From a virus (lineage: Duplodnaviria; Caudoviricetes): DNA of 56,965 bases. The DNA lies in IMG/VR virus record IMGVR_UViG_3300009506_000101, positions 1-56,965 of that record. One strand, given 5' to 3'. Positions 471 to 53,625 of this stretch are shown piece after piece. Positions within the stretch are counted from its first letter, which is position 1. Every line of letters starts with the position of its first letter. The notes under the pieces are model-generated. The model ran no database searches and had not been told where the DNA came from. It was given only the letters and a program-made list of their open reading frames with translations. Position numbers and translations under genes: made by a program.

Positions 471-1090
471 ACTGGGTGCTTTCCTCAAGCTCAGATCGAC
501 GAGCGCTCGATATTGTCGACGGTACGGGAAGGTTCGCTGGACATGGCCCGCACTACTCGAGGCGCACCCCTGGCAGTCGAACATTCACAGGCGTAGGGCA
601 GGAGATAGTTTTGGTCACGGATTGTGGTCGTGCGGTCTGGGCCTGCATCAGACAGAGGACACCGTCCAGAGCAGGCACGGGATGCTCTCGGGGTAGAATC
701 GGTGAATGCGACGACCGACCGCGGTACGTGTGGCGAAACTCGATGTTCCGAAACCTCGGGGCCGGGTTGTCTTCTAAGCTCATCCGTGAGGCAGTAGCAG
801 TCACCTACCGCGAATGGATCGCCAGGTATGGGGCGCTCCCGAGCGAGCGGCTGCGCACAGAGGTTGCGATTGGATCTATTCGGTCCAGCAACCCAGGATG
901 CTGCTACAAGCTGGCGGGCTGGATACAGGAAAGAGTCACTCGCGGGAAGCTGATCCTGCTGGCGCCGGAGGGGGCCACGGTCGATCGTCTCCGGGGCTAC
1001 GGTGCCGGAGCTCTAGCGTGCTACAATGGGCGGGCCCCGCGACGCAGCGACACGTCCGGGGCCCGAACCCACAGGAGGCAAGTCCCGTGA
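467..1090 (+). CDS. Mom-like/GNAT-fold DNA modification protein
   Basis: HYSRRTPGS..FRNLGAGLSSKLIREAV..SSNPGCCYKLAGW resembles the G..Y.A.GW signature of Mom-related GNAT proteins. Confidence 0.55.
   Translation: MNWVLSSSSDRRALDIVDGTGRFAGHGPHYSRRTPGSRTFTGVGQEIVLVTDCGRAVWACIRQRTPSRAGTGCSRGRIGECDDRPRYVWRNSMFRNLGAGLSSKLIREAVAVTYREWIARYGALPSERLRTEVAIGSIRSSNPGCCYKLAGWIQERVTRGKLILLAPEGATVDRLRGYGAGALACYNGRAPRRSDTSGARTHRRQVP
1018..1078 (+). promoter_or_regulatory. extended -10 (TGcTACAAT), bulged hairpin and RBS upstream of GIY-YIG gene
   Basis: GTGCTACAAT-GGGC-GGGCCCCG-C-GACG-CAGCGACA-CGTC-CGGGGCCC-GAA-CCCAC-AGGAGG. Confidence 0.6.
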
Positions 1091-1527
1091 GCAAACCGAG
1101 TTTCCCACAGTTCGTCCGGGTAGTCGATCCTTCGAAGCCAGATCGGAAGCTCTGGGATCCCAGCGTCTACGCTCTGATTGACCCGAGGACCGGATTGATC
1201 CGGTACGTCGGCATGTCAGTAAACCCTGCAGCGCGTTTTGCCGGTCACATGTCAACTCCGGTGATCTCGATCAGGGCCTGGATTCAGGAACTCCAGGCAC
1301 TCGGACTCACTCCGCGGATGGCAGTCCTAGAACGGGTGTCTGAGCCAAGATGGAACTATGCAGAGGGGGAATGGATCAGAACATGTAGGGAAAACGGGTG
1401 TGATCTGCTGAACCGTTCTCCCGGTGGTGTGGGTTGGAAGACCATTCGCCAGCTGGAGTTTGGCTCAGGCCCCATGCGAGCGGCCATCGGACGCTGGAGA
1501 GCCATGGGCTCTTCCTGGGGGAGCTGA
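1087..1527 (+). CDS. GIY-YIG endonuclease
   Basis: VYALIDPRTGLIRYVGMS..R...H, AEGEWI, LLN; GTG start at 1087 after AGGAGG. Confidence 0.85.
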   Translation: MSKPSFPQFVRVVDPSKPDRKLWDPSVYALIDPRTGLIRYVGMSVNPAARFAGHMSTPVISIRAWIQELQALGLTPRMAVLERVSEPRWNYAEGEWIRTCRENGCDLLNRSPGGVGWKTIRQLEFGSGPMRAAIGRWRAMGSSWGS

Positions 1528-2133
1528 TGCACGAAGTCGCCGCCCTGTTCATCGACCCTCGAGGCCCGTACCCTGGTCTGCTCGGAGCTGACCACTGCTG
1601 GGATGAGACGCGGGACGCCAGGACGTACCCGGGTCCGTGGCCGGTCGTGGCTCACCCGCCATGCGCTCGCTGGTGCCGATTCGCCAAGTTCGTCGAGAGC
1701 CAGACCGACGGGCGCCTCGCCGTGGGTGACGACGGCGGTACGTTCGCTTCGGCGCTGGCCTCTGTCCGGAGGTGGGGCGGGGTATTGGAGCATCCAGCCT
1801 GGTCACTCGCCTGGGCCGCCAACGGTCTCATCGCCCCGCCGGCGCGCGGATGGCAGCGCGACATCGATGGCGGGTGGTGTTGCGAGGTGTCGCAGGCAAC
1901 CTATGGGCACCGCGCCAGGAAGCTTACGTGGCTGTACTACGTTGGGTCCGCGGCTCCGCCAGAGTTGGACTGGTCAAGGCCTGATCTCGGGGATGAGGAA
2001 CCGATGCAAGCGGCCGCTAACGGAGCGGCTCTGGAGCGCGAAGGATTGGAAGAACGCGAGCCGTCGAGAAACCTCGCGCAGTCCGGATGCCTTCGCCCGC
2101 CTGCTCATCGAGATCGCGAAGAAGGCGCGCTGA
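1527..2133 (+). CDS. small DNA cytosine methyltransferase-like protein (frameshift near 1980)
   Basis: VVAHPPC, VLEHP, QATYGHRARKLTWLY; plausible C-terminus SRSPDAFARLLIEIAKKAR lies in another frame (ORF 1603..2133). Confidence 0.7.
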
Positions 2134-2614
2134 GAGCCTGGAGCGCCATCCGCCACAGCCTGACGCGGGCATGGGCCCACGGCCTCGGGTCAGCCTCCGA
2201 GCGCTGCCGCTGGAAGCCGTGAGCGGGCCCGCCCTGGGTCATGCCGCGCCGCCACCCCCGGAGCACGAATCTGGCAGCCGAGAGCCTGCGGGCCGAGATG
2301 CTGGCGCTCTCGTCCCATGCGCCTCGAGCCCACCGGTGGACCTGCCACGCGCCCCAGGCGCGGCCGTTGTCGCACCTGGCCCCCTCTGGCCCCTCGTGGC
2401 AGCGGCCCTCCAGCACGTAGGCCGCCAGATGGGTCTCGTGGTAGGCCTGGGACGCCAGGAAGGCCAGCTCCCCCGGGACATCCGTGGCAGCGCACATGGC
2501 TTCGGCCACCGGCGTCAGCAACGCCGTCCGGGCTTCTGCGGACATGTCGCGGTCTTGGTACCAGGGGGCAAGGCTCAGCCAGAACCCCAGCACGGCTGCT
2601 ATGCATTCGGTCAT
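2105..2614 (-). CDS. lysozyme-like/transglycosylase-fold protein
   Basis: Hydrophobic N-terminus; LASQAYHET (catalytic E) and DNGRAWGAWQV (G.G..Q motif). Confidence 0.55.
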   Translation of the reverse strand: MTECIAAVLGFWLSLAPWYQDRDMSAEARTALLTPVAEAMCAATDVPGELAFLASQAYHETHLAAYVLEGRCHEGPEGARCDNGRAWGAWQVHRWARGAWDESASISARRLSAARFVLRGWRRGMTQGGPAHGFQRQRSEADPRPWAHARVRLWRMALQALSAPSSRSR

Positions 2615-2648
2615 GCGGCACAGGCTATCAGCCCAGGGCGCTGGACGC

Positions 2649-2681
2649 AAAAAAGGCCCCGCCGACCGAAGCCGACGGGGC
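2649..2681 (-). terminator. rho-independent terminator
   Basis: Minus strand GCCCCGTCGGC-TTCG-GTCGGCGGGGC-CTTTTTT. Confidence 0.9.
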
Positions 2682-2701
2682 GTAACAAATATATGAGGCA
2701 G

Positions 2702-2781
2702 AGTCGCGAAACGGGAGTCGAACCCGATGTCTCCAGGTTATGAGTTATGAGCCTGGCGAGGAACCGTTTCTCTCTCGCGAC
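2702..2781 (-). tRNA. tRNA-Met(CAT)-like gene with duplicated anticodon loop (possibly pseudo)
   Basis: Acceptor GTCGCGA/TCGCGAC, anticodon arm CCAGG-CTCATAA-CTCATAA-CCTGG, T arm CGGG-TTCGACT-CCCG; followed by terminator. Confidence 0.75.
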
Positions 2782-2790
2782 ACGATGAGT

Positions 2791-3480
2791 CTACTTCTGG
2801 CCCGGCGCCTCGGAAAGTCCACGGCGGACCGCTGACACGAGGTCTGGATTTGCTGTCGGGATCCGGTCGATCCTCTGGTGGAGCTCGGCCACGTCCCGGG
2901 CCCGGCGTGTCTCCTCTGCGTCGATGCGCTCTGAGAACCGTTCCAGCGGTGCCAGAAGCGCCTCGACCCGCTTGGTGGCGGCCTGTGTGACCCGCTCCTC
3001 GGACCTGGCCTCTGCGGCAGCAGCCCCCGTCGTGAGCCACGTCTGGAGCAGCAGCCCGACCGCTCCGATGGTCGCGACGCCGAGCGCGCTGGTGGCCCCG
3101 ACGATCAGCCGGTCCCTGGTCGAGCGCCGGTCATCCGTGCGCTCGTGCTGCTCGAGACCGGCGACTGCCGCCATCTTGGCCGATTGCCCGCGCGCCCTGG
3201 CCTCACGCTGGACCAGCTCCTCGACCTCCTCGGCAGAGTACGTCCGGGTCCGGGACTCGTCAGCGTGGCGCTGAGCGTCCTTCTCGGCGCTGTAGGTCAG
3301 CGGCCCGAGCTTCAGAGCCGGCGGGAGGCTCGGGGGGCGTGTCTGCCGAGGCTCCCCGCCCTTACGCTCCCCGTGGTCCAGGTAGGTCCCGGGGATAGGC
3401 GTCTTGTCGCGGTCGAGGTGGTATTTCGGTGGCGTCGGGCGTGGAACGCGCGGGACCGGGGGAGGCTTGCGGCCGTTCAC
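2791..3480 (-). CDS. membrane protein (one TM plus coiled coil), lysis-region associated
   Basis: TM LIVGATSALGVATIGAVGLLL then coiled coil; GTGA coupling with upstream gene. Confidence 0.6.
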   Translation of the reverse strand: MNGRKPPPVPRVPRPTPPKYHLDRDKTPIPGTYLDHGERKGGEPRQTRPPSLPPALKLGPLTYSAEKDAQRHADESRTRTYSAEEVEELVQREARARGQSAKMAAVAGLEQHERTDDRRSTRDRLIVGATSALGVATIGAVGLLLQTWLTTGAAAAEARSEERVTQAATKRVEALLAPLERFSERIDAEETRRARDVAELHQRIDRIPTANPDLVSAVRRGLSEAPGQK

Positions 3481-3938
3481 GGGTCGGGCTCCTCGGGTTC
3501 CGGGTCTGCCGGCTCCGGCGCCCGACTCGGCTTGAAGCTCGGGCACCGCTCACAGTGAGCGCGGAGCGAAGCAAGGTCGGCCTCGATGGCGGCCATTCGA
3601 CGGTCGGTGTCGGCGTCCCGCATGGCCCGCTCCAGCACCGGCTGTAGGTGTCGCGTCAGGGCCTGCACGCGTTCGGCGCTCCGTTCCTCGAAGTCGGCCA
3701 GCTCCTGGAGGAAGGCGCCGCGGATGTCGGTGAACCTTCTGTCTAGCGACTCCTCGACGGACGCCAGCAGTGCAAGGTTGCTCTGTCCCTCGGTGAAGCT
3801 TGGCCCAGGCGGGACCGTCTCGCGGCTCTCGGGCTGATCCTCGCAGCCATCGGGCGGACCCGCGGGCTCGGTCGACGGGGTGCGGCCTGACCGCGGTGGG
3901 GGGGCTTCCGACTCGGGATGTTTGGCGTCCATGGGCAT
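3477..3938 (-). CDS. hypothetical coiled-coil protein
   Basis: Pro-rich N-terminus, coiled coil, CxxC; coupled to next gene. Confidence 0.6.
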   Translation of the reverse strand: MPMDAKHPESEAPPPRSGRTPSTEPAGPPDGCEDQPESRETVPPGPSFTEGQSNLALLASVEESLDRRFTDIRGAFLQELADFEERSAERVQALTRHLQPVLERAMRDADTDRRMAAIEADLASLRAHCERCPSFKPSRAPEPADPEPEEPDP

Positions 3939-3986
3939 GAGCCTATTGCAACAGTGACAGGTTCGCCTCACCCCTGAGGCTAAATC

Positions 3987-4052
3987 GTGCTACAAAATGA
4001 AGCCCCCGCGGCGGCACTACTCGCCCGGGGGCCGGCCCACAACGGAAAGAGG
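3987..4052 (+). promoter_or_regulatory. extended -10 (TGcTACAAA), bulged hairpin and RBS upstream of HNH gene
   Basis: GTGCTACAAAATGAA-GCCCCCG-C-GGCG-GCACTACT-CGCC-CGGGGGC-CGG-CCCAC-AACGGAAAGAGG. Confidence 0.6.
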
Positions 4053-4058
4053 TTCATC

Positions 4059-4658
4059 ATGGGCGCCAAGAGTCTGCCATTGTCCGACCGCGAGGTCGAA
4101 CGTTTCTGGTCAAATGTCGACAAGGAGGGTCCGGTTCATCCGCACCATCCCGAACTAGGGAAGTGCTGGCTCTGGACCGGGCGTATCGACAGATATGCCG
4201 TATTCGCGTTGCGCGGCCGCGATACCAGGGCCCACAGAGTCTCATTCCTGATCGCGAATGGGCACTTCCCAACGCCCTGTGGATGCCACAGCTGCGACCG
4301 CAAGAACTGCGTGAACCCGGATCATATCTGGGAAGGCAGCAATGCCGACAATCACGCCGACATGATGATGAAGGGGAGGCATCGTCATCACGAGGTAATA
4401 GCTCCGCGAGGACCGGCCATGTTGCTTCGTGCCTGGAGAAAATACATTGGCATGCAGCAAGGCGAGCTTGCGGGGTTCCTATCTGTGCATAGGACAGCCG
4501 TCTCTCACTACGAGCGCGGAACTGGTCGTCCGGAGCTGCGCGTCGCTCAGATGATTGAGGGACTCACAGCAATCCCAGCAGGCATGTGGAACGAGTATTA
4601 CGCACCTAACTCACACTACCGTTCCAAACGGTCGTCCCCTCGAACGACTGGCTTGTGA
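4059..4658 (+). CDS. HNH (His-Me finger) homing endonuclease fused to XRE HTH
   Basis: RFWSNVDK..CWLWTG..AHRVSF..HSCDRKNCVNPDH..N; C-terminal GMQQGELA..V.RTAVSHYERG..P. Confidence 0.9.
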   Translation: MGAKSLPLSDREVERFWSNVDKEGPVHPHHPELGKCWLWTGRIDRYAVFALRGRDTRAHRVSFLIANGHFPTPCGCHSCDRKNCVNPDHIWEGSNADNHADMMMKGRHRHHEVIAPRGPAMLLRAWRKYIGMQQGELAGFLSVHRTAVSHYERGTGRPELRVAQMIEGLTAIPAGMWNEYYAPNSHYRSKRSSPRTTGL

Positions 4659-4863
4659 CTTCGGTCGTCGCTCCGGTGCAGATGATGTCCCACGGCAACG
4701 GCCGAGGCTGCCACCAGTGATCGGGGTACGTTGGGACCGTATACGGTTGCGGAACCACGACTGGACGCACCGCCAGCGCGGACTCGAGCGCCTTGACACG
4801 CTCCCGAAGCTCGGAATTCTCGTCCAGCAGTCGTTGCAGCAGCTTGCATTCTTCCTTCGTCAT
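4606..4863 (-). CDS. hypothetical protein
   Basis: ATG start, coiled-coil N-terminus. Confidence 0.55.
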   Translation of the reverse strand: MTKEECKLLQRLLDENSELRERVKALESALAVRPVVVPQPYTVPTYPDHWWQPRPLPWDIICTGATTEVTSQSFEGTTVWNGSVS

Positions 4864-4868
4864 AGTCT

Positions 4869-5060
4869 CTACCTCATGGCCGGGTCGACATTCCGGAGCG
4901 GCCCAAACCGCTCAAGTTCGGCCTGCAGCTCCTGAACCTTGATCAGCAGCTCGGCGCTCCGACGCTCGGCCTCGGTAGCGCGCTTGGCCAAGACAGCCAT
5001 CTGGACCTCGAGCGATTCGCATCGGGCGCAAGGGATCGGGGCGGGCCAGCTATCGGGCAT
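4869..5060 (-). CDS. hypothetical CxxC coiled-coil protein
   Basis: PCARC then coiled coil. Confidence 0.5.
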   Translation of the reverse strand: MPDSWPAPIPCARCESLEVQMAVLAKRATEAERRSAELLIKVQELQAELERFGPLRNVDPAMR

Positions 5061-30640: not shown

Positions 30641-31195
30641 TCAGCCCCAGAGGGCCTGTAGCTGGTAAAACCCGCGGTCGAGTTCCTGGACGAGCCACGA
30701 CTCCGCGTGGTCGCGGGCCGGTTTCATGAATGGGTAGGGCTTGCCGCCCGGGTGGTGCACCATGTAGGCGAAGACTGCCTGGCCCTCGTTGCCGGGCGTG
30801 CCGTCTCCGCCCACGAACCACCTGAGCTTCACCCGGTGGGTCCCGATGTCGTCCAGCTCCCGGCGGCCTTGGCTGCGGCGGAGCGGCCCCACGAATCCGT
30901 GCCCTTCCTTGGGCCAGATCTCGTGAGCCCGCGTCCCCTCCTCGACGAACCGCGAGTAGAACATGGGCGAGACGAACCAGCACTCGGCCGTCTTGGGCGT
31001 GAAGGCCCCGGGCTCCGCGTGAATCGAGCCCCTGAGCTGGCCAGTCCGGTCCTGGAATGGCCCGTACTGCTTGGCGTGCGCAACTGCCTTGGCGGCCGCG
31101 CCCGTCACGCCGATCGACATCTGGTGAGCCAGTACCAGCTTGGTGTTGCGGAGCGCGGCGTCGAAGCCGGTGAAGTCTACGTCGACACGGAACAT
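30641..31195 (-). CDS. neck / HK97 gp10-like tail completion protein
   Basis: DRTGQLRGSI, YSRFVEEGTRAHEI, VHHPGGKPYPFMKPA. Confidence 0.85.
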   Translation of the reverse strand: MFRVDVDFTGFDAALRNTKLVLAHQMSIGVTGAAAKAVAHAKQYGPFQDRTGQLRGSIHAEPGAFTPKTAECWFVSPMFYSRFVEEGTRAHEIWPKEGHGFVGPLRRSQGRRELDDIGTHRVKLRWFVGGDGTPGNEGQAVFAYMVHHPGGKPYPFMKPARDHAESWLVQELDRGFYQLQALWG

Positions 31196-51378: not shown

Positions 51379-52199
51379 GACACGAACCCGAGATCCTCCG
51401 CGGTTGGCTCCGAGTCGTCGGCTTCTGGCTTCTTTGGCCTTCTACGCCGGTCGTTCCAGTCAGACTGCACAGCAATCACGCAGCACTTGCTCCAGTGCTC
51501 ACGGGTGCGGAGATCCGACTTGCTGGCCTGGTTCTTCGCGACGAACCTCGCGATGAGCTGCCTGATCGCCCAGATAGGAATCATCGACGTCTCGAGCGTC
51601 GACACCTGGTTGGAATTCAGGATCTCATCCACCGGGGGGCACTGCACCCGATCTTCTGGATCCGGAGATGTAGAGGGAGAGGGAGAAGATACTGATACAG
51701 AAAGAGGGGCATGCGAGCTAGCTGCATGCCCCATGCTGTTGTCTTGCATCCCCCTTCCAAGGGGCTTCGATGGGGCATTCTCGCCAGACAGGTACCGACT
51801 CTTGAATTCCAGCGCGAACGGATGGTCGCCAAAGGCACCGAGCTCTGTCAGCACAGACTTGACCGCCTTGTCGGTCGACTTGATGCCAGACCCGTCAGGT
51901 AGGCTCATCTGTTCTCGGCACCCGTTTGGCATCCAGACGAGCTCCTCGTCGAAGTCGTACTGCGCAATCTCACCAATAGCCTCCAGAGCAGCCTGAACCT
52001 CGCCTTCCTCGAGCCCGGTGTCGTGCATCATGGTCACGATAGGGCAGTAGAACAGGCCGATCCTACTGCCTGTCGGGGCACTCATGAGGTAGAGCGCCAA
52101 CACCTGCGCAGACTTGTCGCCACGAAGCTTACGGCCGCTGCCTCGCGTCCAGAATGTAGGGCGAATCTGGGCGAACTTCCGCATCCTAAGACCTGCCAT
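51375..52199 (-). CDS. phage replication initiator (lambda O-like)
   Basis: FAQIRPTFW, LALYLMSAP..IGLFYCP..HDTGL; low-complexity SPSPSTSPDP linker. Confidence 0.8.
   Translation of the reverse strand: MAGLRMRKFAQIRPTFWTRGSGRKLRGDKSAQVLALYLMSAPTGSRIGLFYCPIVTMMHDTGLEEGEVQAALEAIGEIAQYDFDEELVWMPNGCREQMSLPDGSGIKSTDKAVKSVLTELGAFGDHPFALEFKSRYLSGENAPSKPLGRGMQDNSMGHAASSHAPLSVSVSSPSPSTSPDPEDRVQCPPVDEILNSNQVSTLETSMIPIWAIRQLIARFVAKNQASKSDLRTREHWSKCCVIAVQSDWNDRRRRPKKPEADDSEPTAEDLGFVS
51655..51780. other. candidate replication origin within the initiator gene
   Basis: GGGGCAT-like repeats in both orientations, inverted repeat GGGGCATGC..GCATGCCCC, adjacent purine-skewed tract. Confidence 0.55.
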
Positions 52200-52653
52200 T
52201 GTTCCTGACTCTGGCCATCACCATCGCGACCGCCAGCCTCAGCGGGACCGTTTCGCGCCCCAGGCCGAGATTGCAGGCATCGCACATGGCGCAGAGGTTT
52301 TCGGGGTCGTTCAGTTCGTCCTCAGAAAGTCCATGCTGCTTTCCGTCCTCTAGGCTCACGAGATGTCCCACGTGAAGTTCTCCATTCCCTGGGCCACGGC
52401 CGCACAGCTCGCATCGCCCACTCGCTCGTAGCAACACCATCGATCTCGTCTTGGGCTTGATGTCGTCCCTTGTCTTGACGTGCCTGACTGGCCGCCCAGT
52501 CTCAGCCCTGGGCGCGTTGTACTGGAACCGGTCACACGACGCGCAATACACGCAGTCCTGGGCTCCCTTCGGACGGATAACACCTACTGCAGAGCCGCAA
52601 CCGCAGCGGGCCCTGAGCATGATCTCATCACTGGACTCAAACAGATCAGCCAC
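52186..52653 (-). CDS. Zn-finger HNH endonuclease
   Basis: CELCG..LHVGH..NDPENLCAMCDACN.G; GTG start after GGGAGG. Confidence 0.88.
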   Translation of the reverse strand: MADLFESSDEIMLRARCGCGSAVGVIRPKGAQDCVYCASCDRFQYNAPRAETGRPVRHVKTRDDIKPKTRSMVLLRASGRCELCGRGPGNGELHVGHLVSLEDGKQHGLSEDELNDPENLCAMCDACNLGLGRETVPLRLAVAMVMARVRNNGRS

Positions 52654-52867
52654 AGTACCTCCCGACACCGTGTGGGACCACCCGACAGCTGCTACACCGC
52701 GACTTGAGCCTCGGATACTGCCTGATGGGCCCACACGGAACCGGGAGGCTAGCTCTCATCGAACGGTGTAGCATGTCCGCAACCTTCCCCGGTTCCGCCG
52801 CGCCTGTCAAGCGTCATGATCGCCCCCGCGGATTCTCTCGCAGTTTTCGCGCTCAGTTTCCGGCTCC

Positions 52868-53188
52868 CTATTCAGCTCCGCGAGGGCATCGAAGAGCTCG
52901 GCGAGGCGGAACTGTTGATCGGCACTCCGTCGGAAAGAGGATTGCCCCAGACCTGATTTCGAGAGCAGGAGCATCGGTCAGGGCCCAGGCCCGGGATGCT
53001 CCTGGCGCCCCACGGCGAAGAAACCCGCGACGCTCAAGTCGTGCCAATGTTTCTGACCCCATGTTCGTAGATGACCAGCCGCAGGCCCTTCCGATTTCGC
53101 GGATGGTTGGGAAGTATCCATGCGCAGAAACAAATTCGCGGATGTAGTCCAATGCTCGCTGTTGTCCAGGAGGAAGATGTTCTGTCAT
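52868..53188 (-). CDS. LexA-type DNA-binding domain protein (no peptidase domain)
   Basis: QQRALDYIREF..HGYFPTIREIGRACG.SS..LARLERRGFLRR..SRA. Confidence 0.85.
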   Translation of the reverse strand: MTEHLPPGQQRALDYIREFVSAHGYFPTIREIGRACGWSSTNMGSETLARLERRGFLRRGAPGASRAWALTDAPALEIRSGAILFPTECRSTVPPRRALRCPRGAE

Positions 53189-53625
53189 CGAGGATCTCCT
53201 TCCATCTCCACCAGCTCCACCACCCCCCGCCTCGGCCTCCGGATCCGCCCCTTGCGCTCGAGGGCCTGGAGGGTCTGGGTCACCTGCGCGTCGCCCGCCC
53301 AGCCCATGTGCTCCCGCATCTCGCGGTAGGTCGGGGCACGGCCGGAGTGGCCGAGCATGCCCCGGATGAGCCCGAGCAGACGCCATTGCTGGGGGGAGAG
53401 CTGGCGGTGACCACCGTAGACCGCGAGGGCCGTGCAGTTGCGGTGCCGCGTGCTGGCCGGTCGCGGTCCGTCTGGTGCGTGCGGGCCCTCGCCGCTCAAC
53501 GCGTTGTAGCAGCAGTCCGAGACCGATCGCCAGAATCGGTCGAGAGGTTTCCCGTCCCATCCGACGCGCGTCCGCATCGCGGTCCCGAAGAACGAGCGGA
53601 ACGGGTCAGGGCGAGCCATGGCCAT
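53185..53625 (-). CDS. LexA-type DNA-binding domain protein with N-terminal extension
   Basis: LSPQQ..I..GRAPTYREM..G..V...LQALERKGRIRR. Confidence 0.8.
   Translation of the reverse strand: MAMARPDPFRSFFGTAMRTRVGWDGKPLDRFWRSVSDCCYNALSGEGPHAPDGPRPASTRHRNCTALAVYGGHRQLSPQQWRLLGLIRGMLGHSGRAPTYREMREHMGWAGDAQVTQTLQALERKGRIRRPRRGVVELVEMEGDPR

Follow-up and report, generated by a model that had tools for sequence, protein, structure and literature searches.

Two nuclease genes of unrelated families in one viral genome are preceded by closely similar short leaders, and the question raised by this locus is what such a leader is and why it should stand before both. The window analyzed here is the whole of the IMG/VR virus record IMGVR_UViG_3300009506_000101 (56,965 bases, about 65% GC). 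The two leaders, at 1018-1078 and 3987-4052, had been pointed out in an initial annotation, and a direct reading of both confirmed that they share a box, GTGCTACAA, a bulged GC hairpin (hp1), a CCCA motif and a ribosome-binding site (RBS). The genes behind them, a GIY-YIG gene at 1087-1527 and an HNH gene at 4059-4658, are as unrelated as had been claimed. Our data indicate that both leaders are copies of one widespread control module, not previously described, which stands at the starts of mobile and selfish genes of Actinomycetota and of the phages of that phylum. It spans about 100 nucleotides and consists of an A-rich tract, hp1, a linker that is predicted to fold with the Shine-Dalgarno (SD) sequence and the start codon into a second hairpin (hp2), and the first 6-7 or so codons; beyond the limits first pointed out, it reaches about 20 nucleotides into the coding region. 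The parts read on the sense strand, and the genes that follow, are:

1018-1026, plus strand: GTGCTACAA box of copy 1, extended -10-like (G-n-TACAAT); read on the opposite strand, the tail behind hp1
1031-1065: hp1 of copy 1 (C1031-G1065), 9+4 base pairs, bulged C1040, 8-nucleotide loop CAGCGACA
1066-1089, plus strand: linker, SD and predicted hp2 of copy 1, with CCCA at 1068-1071, AGGAGG at 1073-1078 and GTG at 1087
1087-1527, plus strand: GIY-YIG nuclease gene, 146 residues; its stop codon overlaps the next gene's ATG at 1527
3987-3995, plus strand: GTGCTACAA box of copy 2
4002-4032: hp1 of copy 2 (G4002-C4032), 7+4 base pairs, a fifth inner pair predicted, bulged C4009
4035-4064, plus strand: linker, SD and predicted hp2 of copy 2, with CCCA at 4036-4039, the SD GGAAAGAGG at 4044-4052 and ATG at 4059
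4059-4658, plus strand: HNH endonuclease gene, 199 residues, with a C-terminal HTH_3 domain

The letters of hp1 are GGCCCCG-C-GACG, loop CAGCGACA, CGTC-CGGGGCC in copy 1 and GCCCCCG-C-GGCG, loop GCACTACT, CGCC-CGGGGGC in copy 2. The covariation of the stem that had been reported between them is real, in that two stem positions differ and each difference is compensatory (G-C to C-G and A-T to G-C). Another viral contig (L003) carries a third stem variant, with T-A at both covarying positions. The region 1031-1100 of copy 1 has a fold energy of -34.6 kcal/mol (z -4.24), and none of 200 shuffled sequences folded equally well. A covariance model, R1, based on 110 sequences of the family with both window copies among them, was run on the window with filters off; copy 1 scored 37.6 bits and copy 2 scored 35.1 bits, while the next best match scored 9.8 bits (E=1.4). 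A chance origin of the likeness is unlikely because TGCTACAA occurs four times in the window against 0.26 expected, a number reached by none of 100 shuffles, because the box together with GCCCC occurs exactly twice, and because both copies score as they do with R1.

Scans for the hairpin and CCCA pattern, in which most stem letters were fixed, gave the first further viral copies (L003, also listed as L004; L006; and L007) and at least 120 matches each in the metagenome and genome collections. The two stem pairs that were left free are both Watson-Crick in 139 of the 245 matches listed among the fetched loci and in 32 of 36 matches in viral contigs, against 1/16 expected, and the stem covariation thus holds across the family. 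The loop of hp1 varies from 6 to 10 nucleotides. A strict pattern of box plus hairpin had no match in the viral contigs, and a match to a looser pattern there (L005) was set aside as a chance occurrence within a coding region.

When 150 first-look candidates were scored with R1 in each genome, at least 31 and at least 36 matches were found in two Conexibacteraceae genomes, at least 6 in Streptomyces iranensis, at least 4 in Thermobifida cellulosilytica and at least 2 in Patulibacter. Copies are also present in cultured phages, namely Arthrobacter phage Pitbull, where the module stands before HNH gene 27, and mycobacteriophages, Butters among them, of cluster N and other groups. BLAST searches of the leaders (50-59 nucleotides) against cultured phages returned mostly noise, Pitbull excepted. 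The portal protein of the window phage is only about 27% identical to the portal of any cultured phage, and therefore no host can be named for it. The initial annotation had not recognized the motif, and comparison with Rfam agreed: with Rfam 15, no family reached its gathering threshold in the whole window or in 15 loci with family members, and a search of 950-4150 by E-value returned irrelevant weak matches only. A literature search found no description of the module.

The genes that follow the module are diverse. The same element stands ahead of at least 39 unrelated protein clusters, which bears out the earlier view of the leader as a portable unit before unrelated genes. In a survey of 97 distinct open reading frames (ORFs) of at least 80 residues, taken from the metagenomes, the genomes and the first viral matches and scanned with Pfam, with starts called mechanically, Phage_integrase was found 14 times, DUF772 9 times, HNH_3 7 times and DDE_Tnp_1 5 times; HNH, HNH_5 and NUMOD4 were found once each, and most of the others had no match. 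The 22 distinct downstream ORFs of the viral contigs included 4 HNH, 1 integrase, 1 IS605 OrfB/TnpB and 2 DUF732 proteins. The suggested association with nucleases therefore holds in part: HNH genes are enriched, but they make up a minority of the downstream ORFs (about 10 of 97, and 4 of 22 in viral contigs), and the module is not specific to nucleases. One gene of about 145 residues, whose N-terminus reads MSTPQRTHAR..VDRETADVLR, is present in dozens of copies in the Conexibacteraceae genomes G001 and G002 (L256-L285). Ahead of every copy stand the module and a conserved motif, ttccgtccg, which is also found at the left end of DUF772/DDE transposase elements. Pfam and NCBIfam contained nothing for this family or for the other small downstream proteins, and these genes with their module may be an undescribed family of mobile elements.

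In the window itself, the GIY-YIG protein has a Pfam match of its own that falls below the cut-off (E=0.11, 13.3 bits). It has 10,889 HMMER relatives at E<=1e-3, over residues 26-117, and among the 10 top remote homologues that were scanned 7 have the GIY-YIG domain PF01541, which places it in the GIY-YIG family; a homologous-protein search with it returned only the protein itself. The product of 4059-4658 matches PHROG families of HNH proteins and endonucleases (2.4e-16 to 1e-5) and Pfam HTH_3 (1.8e-6). No Pfam HNH model matched it at E<=0.01, and its assignment to the HNH family comes from the PHROG profiles.

In public metagenome contigs, both leader-nuclease units lie in presence/absence blocks of the window's own population:

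963-1531: block with leader 1 and the GIY-YIG gene
3951-4869: block with leader 2, the HNH gene and the small minus-strand ORF 4606-4863

One contig (run X2, depth 4, side 54) joins 143 to 1532, with everything between the flanking genes gone, and this joint ends exactly at the start codon of the next gene. Other contigs join 406 to 963, 978 or 985 (run X1, depth 18.4, and run X4); in these the upstream gene 467-970 is missing, and leader 1 is retained together with the GIY-YIG gene. At the second block, leader 2, the HNH gene and the minus-strand ORF are missing from a joint of 3950 to 4870 (run X1, depth 9.5, with a side of only 25) and from a joint of 3934 to 4937 (run X4, depth 10, side 79). 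The same arrangement is seen in Pitbull, in which the HNH gene, its leader, a small ORF and a 3′ hairpin all lie in one block of 1,022 bp; the related phage Hum25 has 54 nucleotides there. The suggestion that the leader is itself a mobility end was not borne out, since its position and orientation are fixed relative to the start codon and not to the ends of the elements.

On the sense side, GTGCTACAA is found 7-8 nucleotides before CCCCG in copy 1, copy 2 and L003 alike. L006 has TGCGTAGATT where the other copies have GTGCTACAA, with TAGATT at 7 nucleotides, and cellular members have a -10-like hexamer 17-25 nucleotides 5′ of hp1. Judged by its letters and spacing, GTGCTACAA is probably the extended -10 element (GnTAnnnT/A) of a sense promoter whose mRNA would have its 5′ end at the base of hp1. 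A consensus promoter scan for a -35 plus a -10 element did not call the box and found nothing between hp1 and the start codon. With one mismatch allowed, GTGCTACAA occurs 8 times in the window against 4.9 expected.

The linker of the family, RUGG or RUGA followed by CCCA, is predicted to pair together with the SD against an anti-SD sequence, the start codon and the second codon, and so to form hp2. In copy 1, both the minimum free energy and the centroid structure of 1031-1100 pair CAC 1070-1072 with GUG 1087-1089 and GGA 1074-1076 with UCC 1083-1085, and in copy 2 the predicted fold pairs GCCCA 4035-4039 with UGGGC 4060-4064, which is the start codon and the next codon. Across the family the predicted pairing probability of the SD exceeds 0.5 in 83% of 84 leaders, compared with 40% of 242 start regions taken from the same loci as controls, and both SD and start codon are paired in 71% of the leaders compared with 22% of the controls. 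The forms of hp2 in Streptomyces, Thermobifida and Pitbull have covarying 5-bp arms. The translational RNA switch named in the initial annotation is therefore plausible, in that hp2 is predicted to pair the SD and start codon in the window copies and in the family. An upstream ORF starting from the AUG of the linker was rejected, as its frame, measured against that of the main start, is distributed 23/15/10 over 48 cases. Readings of the leader as tRNA-like or as a minihelix were dropped on anatomy alone, because neither the lengths of stem and loop nor the place of CCA would suit them. In the window no tRNA was found with ARAGORN, and a weak tRNA-Sec match at 2703-2781 is unsupported.

The other strand shows a different set of regularities, which the initial annotation had not noted. 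At least four A in the 9 nucleotides 5′ of the hp1 stem are present in 105 of 133 leaders, and at least four T in the 9 nucleotides 3′ of the stem are present in none of the 133. Read on the opposite strand, 105 of the 133 members thus have the shape of a terminator, a GC stem with a U-rich tract behind it; copy 2 has this shape and copy 1 has it weakly. By shape, hp1 would belong with terminators of the IS200-like type that lie upstream of a translation start. Among 101 distinct hp1 sequences, the cells that are not Watson-Crick include 57 sense A.C, which correspond to G.U in an antisense RNA, and 2 sense G.U. The same kind of mismatch occurs in copy 2 at the next position outward of hp1 (A4001/C4033), where sense A.C is antisense G.U. 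Finally, the first 20 nucleotides of 111 ORFs contain 95 occurrences of the sense motif ANNNTA (TANNNT when read on the opposite strand), where 204 control genes would predict 2.2. Its offset is +12 or +13 in 75 of 112 ORFs. Counted by unrelated protein cluster it is present in 27 of 39, and the distinct viral copies have it in 21 of 25 cases; it is usually followed by nC, which makes GnTAnnnT on the opposite strand. Because of the one-sided U-tract, the 57:2 asymmetry of the wobble pairs and the opposite-strand -10 motif, hp1 is probably the terminator of a cis-antisense RNA of about 70-80 nucleotides, as a signature of the family. The corresponding positions in the window are:

1099-1104, minus strand: antisense -10 position hexamer of copy 1, sense AGTTTC, opposite GAAACT
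4071-4076, minus strand: antisense -10 position hexamer of copy 2, sense AGTCTG, opposite CAGACT
1018-1093, minus strand: predicted cis-antisense RNA of copy 1, ends approximate
3987-4065, minus strand: predicted cis-antisense RNA of copy 2

Both window hexamers lie at the family offset of +12 and keep A(-11) and T(-7). The two copies have codons 5-7 in common (AGT TTC CCA and AGT CTG CCA), while the proteins encoded are unrelated. In copy 2 the U-rich UUCAUUUUGU comes after hp1 on the antisense strand. For the two window copies, an antisense RNA would follow by analogy with the family.

In the mechanism that we propose, RNA polymerase would start on the opposite strand about 6 nucleotides inside the gene, and the antisense transcript would cross the start codon and the SD and stop at hp1 and its U-tract, giving a cis-antisense RNA of about 70-80 nucleotides. 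In the mRNA, SD and start codon alike would be occluded by hp2, and antisense RNA and hp2 together would keep translation of the nuclease or recombinase low. We consider it reasonably probable that the module works in this way, as a bidirectional control module in which start-site occlusion by hp2 is joined by added repression from a cis-antisense RNA terminated by hp1.

Several observations weigh against this proposal. T(-12) of the antisense hexamer has been lost in both window copies, which leaves a degenerate nANNNT, and the antisense U-tail of copy 1 is poor (CCCAUUGUAG). As many as 49 of the 57 A.C cells come from one outermost pair, which could belong to the A-rich flank. Many rows of the family are related by descent and the raw counts overstate their independence, so the 27 of 39 protein clusters is the fairer figure. 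The conservation of the stem sequence cannot be judged from pattern scans with mostly fixed stem letters. There are also -10-like hexamers on the sense strand 5′ of hp1, and therefore hp1 lies within the mRNA as well and may act there.

Another explanation, close to the view of the initial annotation, dispenses with the antisense RNA altogether. If transcription starts from GTGCTACAA and yields a 5′ leader in which hp1 is a stabilizer or insulator of the 5′ end and hp2 throttles ribosome binding, then the constant 7-8 nucleotides between box and hairpin in the three box-bearing copies, TAGATT at 7 nucleotides in L006 and the hp2 predicted in both window copies and family-wide would all be expected, as would the degenerate antisense hexamer of the window copies. 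RBS-sequestering hairpins at T4 homing-endonuclease genes, with a very stable hairpin just 5′ of the seg43(25) RBS, offer a precedent in a review of T4 (PMC2988022). We nevertheless hold this account to be unlikely. In the cellular members the -10-like hexamer is 17-25 nucleotides 5′ of hp1, so hp1 is not 5′-terminal there, and the account leaves unexplained the one-sided A-tract, the wobble asymmetry and the fixed TANNNT on the opposite strand of unrelated ORFs. It is improbable that hp1 is instead a transcriptional insulator or attenuator, that is, a bidirectional terminator of the IS200 left-end type that shields the mobile gene and its neighbours, the hexamer in the ORF having some other cause. 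Such a role would suit a GC hairpin of great stability that borders inserted blocks, has a canonical terminator shape on the opposite strand and, in several members, comes after the stop codon of an upstream gene in the same orientation, and IS200 provides a precedent (PMC4513863); but a U-tract on the sense side is found in 0 of 133 members, the promoter-like boxes 5′ of hp1 mean that transcripts of the gene itself would be stopped too, and the antisense -10 at a fixed offset is again unexplained.

The initial annotation had also considered an operator through which the nucleases regulate themselves. An inverted repeat in double-stranded DNA, bound by a repressor or by the nucleases in the manner of I-TevI, would fit with the promoter-like box that adjoins the repeat, with the HTH_3 domain of the HNH protein and with the autorepression of I-TevI recounted in the T4 review (PMC2988022). 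This explanation is very improbable and the claim was not upheld: the stem changes are compensatory rather than conserved, the loop varies from 6 to 10 nucleotides, and the element is the same before dozens of protein families and before at least 39 unrelated protein clusters. TGCTACA as a repeated operator was also unconvincing, as it occurs 6 times in the window against 2.1 expected and 6 occurrences were reached by 3 of 100 shuffles. This heptamer had given rise to the claim of a third nuclease leader near 52770. TGCTACA is present there on the minus strand, but R1 found no hairpin, hence there is no leader, and the gene at 52186-52734 on the minus strand has only a weak HNH match (E=0.039).

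Next to that gene there is a perfect 10-bp inverted repeat, TGCTACACCG (52690-52699, plus strand) and CGGTGTAGCA (52766-52775, minus strand), with its arms about 65 nucleotides apart. It lies between a LexA_DNA_bind gene (52868-53560, minus strand) and the HNH-like gene 52186-52734, and may be an operator; it is the source of the third leader that had been claimed.

For the bidirectional control by hp2 and a cis-antisense RNA proposed here, the left end of IS200 comes closest among known systems; a terminator hairpin, a stem-loop that sequesters the SD and a cis-antisense small RNA (sRNA), art200, are described there (PMC4513863). The likeness lies in the control of a selfish DNA-processing gene and in the three-part logic proposed for the module. 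In IS200, however, the terminator is 5′ of the tnpA start site and is not described as the terminator of art200, whereas hp1 is predicted to end the antisense RNA and to lie within the mRNA. The module is also found before many unrelated gene families across a phylum, compared with one insertion sequence. No sequence relation to the IS200 5′ untranslated region or art200 was found: no Rfam family reached its gathering score in the window or the 15 family loci, a result that bears on this relation insofar as Rfam has an IS200 or art200 model. The hosts of the module are not known to have Hfq. The proposed antisense RNA may also be compared with IS10 RNA-IN/RNA-OUT and with related antisense systems at transposase and toxin genes, in which a short RNA from the opposite strand covers the RBS of a transposase mRNA. 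IS10 has no homology with the module, has another architecture and is a single insertion sequence family.

The second comparison is with phage T4, where hairpins that sequester the RBS are reported at I-TevI, I-TevII, I-TevIII, segB and mobE, and where a late promoter inside the hairpin lets late transcripts escape, as set out in the T4 review (PMC2988022). In both cases free-standing phage HNH or GIY-YIG genes have an RNA structure, for the module a predicted one, over the translation start, and unrelated nucleases follow one scheme. The T4 elements, in contrast, are not one homologous motif and involve no antisense RNA. The T4 precedent cited initially therefore applies in part: hp2 is predicted to sequester the SD and start codon, but there is no promoter inside the hairpin, only a box 5′ of both hairpins. 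The module is a member of neither the IS200-type nor the T4-type systems.

A copy of the module in the mycobacteriophage Butters (L318, at 31,015-31,078 and scored at 38.1 bits by R1) lies between genes 42 and 43. RNA sequencing of the Butters lysogen revealed antisense expression that spans genes 42-43, according to two papers that cite Dedrick et al. 2017 for it (bioRxiv 10.1101/2023.01.03.522681; PMC10700106). This gives independent experimental support, at second hand, to the proposed antisense RNA. The module of Butters and its relatives (cluster N, Che9c and Purky) is within the early rightward operon, 3′ of a cro-like gene, and the Butters-type copies could also act as an early terminator or a silencer in the lysogenic phase. 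A 50-bp motif of the Gordonia phage Vardy was considered and rejected; it is an unrelated leaderless promoter motif.

A broader reading, to which we give slightly less than an even chance, would combine all of this in a single bidirectional cassette of about 100 nucleotides, made up of hp2 and a convergent antisense-sRNA gene with hp1 as its terminator and about 7 codons, that moves modularly and serves as a phylum-wide silencer of DNA-cutting genes, the Butters 42-43 antisense transcript being one of its products. Under the same reading, its carriers would be HNH and GIY-YIG genes, tyrosine integrases, IS5/IS1182-type and IS605-TnpB transposases and early phage genes, and its hosts would include Thermoleophilia, Streptomyces, Mycobacterium and Arthrobacter and their phages. 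If this is true, one compact RNA module would govern very different selfish genes across a phylum and its phages, and homing endonucleases would have borrowed a general silencer of mobile genes instead of evolving their own control. The module would also be a new Rfam candidate, would account for a so far unexplained antisense signal of a well-studied mycobacteriophage, would mark in sequence the starts of mobile genes and the actinobacterial hosts of uncultured phages, and would provide a ready-made low-leak expression part for the engineering of Streptomyces and Mycobacterium.

Some smaller features of the region were observed as well. The stretch 407-962, with the ORF 467-1090 (phrog_24928), is a separate presence/absence insertion. 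The contigs of runs X1 and X4 that join 406 to 963-985 have 10-32 other letters between the two sides, and in run X1 the form without 407-962 is deeper (18.4) than the form of the window (4-5.5). The homology of ORF 467-1090 to its relatives ends at about nucleotide 970, and its 40 C-terminal residues read through leader 1; this read-through is therefore incidental. The relatives of this upstream ORF have only that gene in common with the window, hence they give no empty site. A small hairpin, CTCCGG-N10-CCGGAG, lies at 989-1010, where the variable block has its left edge, and directly 5′ of the GTGCTACAA box of copy 1. After position 1981, within the phrog_12600 gene, a 14-nucleotide insertion is present in contigs of three runs, and this difference shifts the frame in either the window or those contigs. 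Between the two leaders there is a canonical intrinsic terminator on the minus strand (2655-2681), an 11-bp GC stem followed by CTTTTTTG. It lies just 3′ of the minus-strand ORF 2791-3546 and overlaps the start of ORF 2105-2650, and it is the sole terminator-like hairpin in 800-4300, where the scan lists two overlapping calls.

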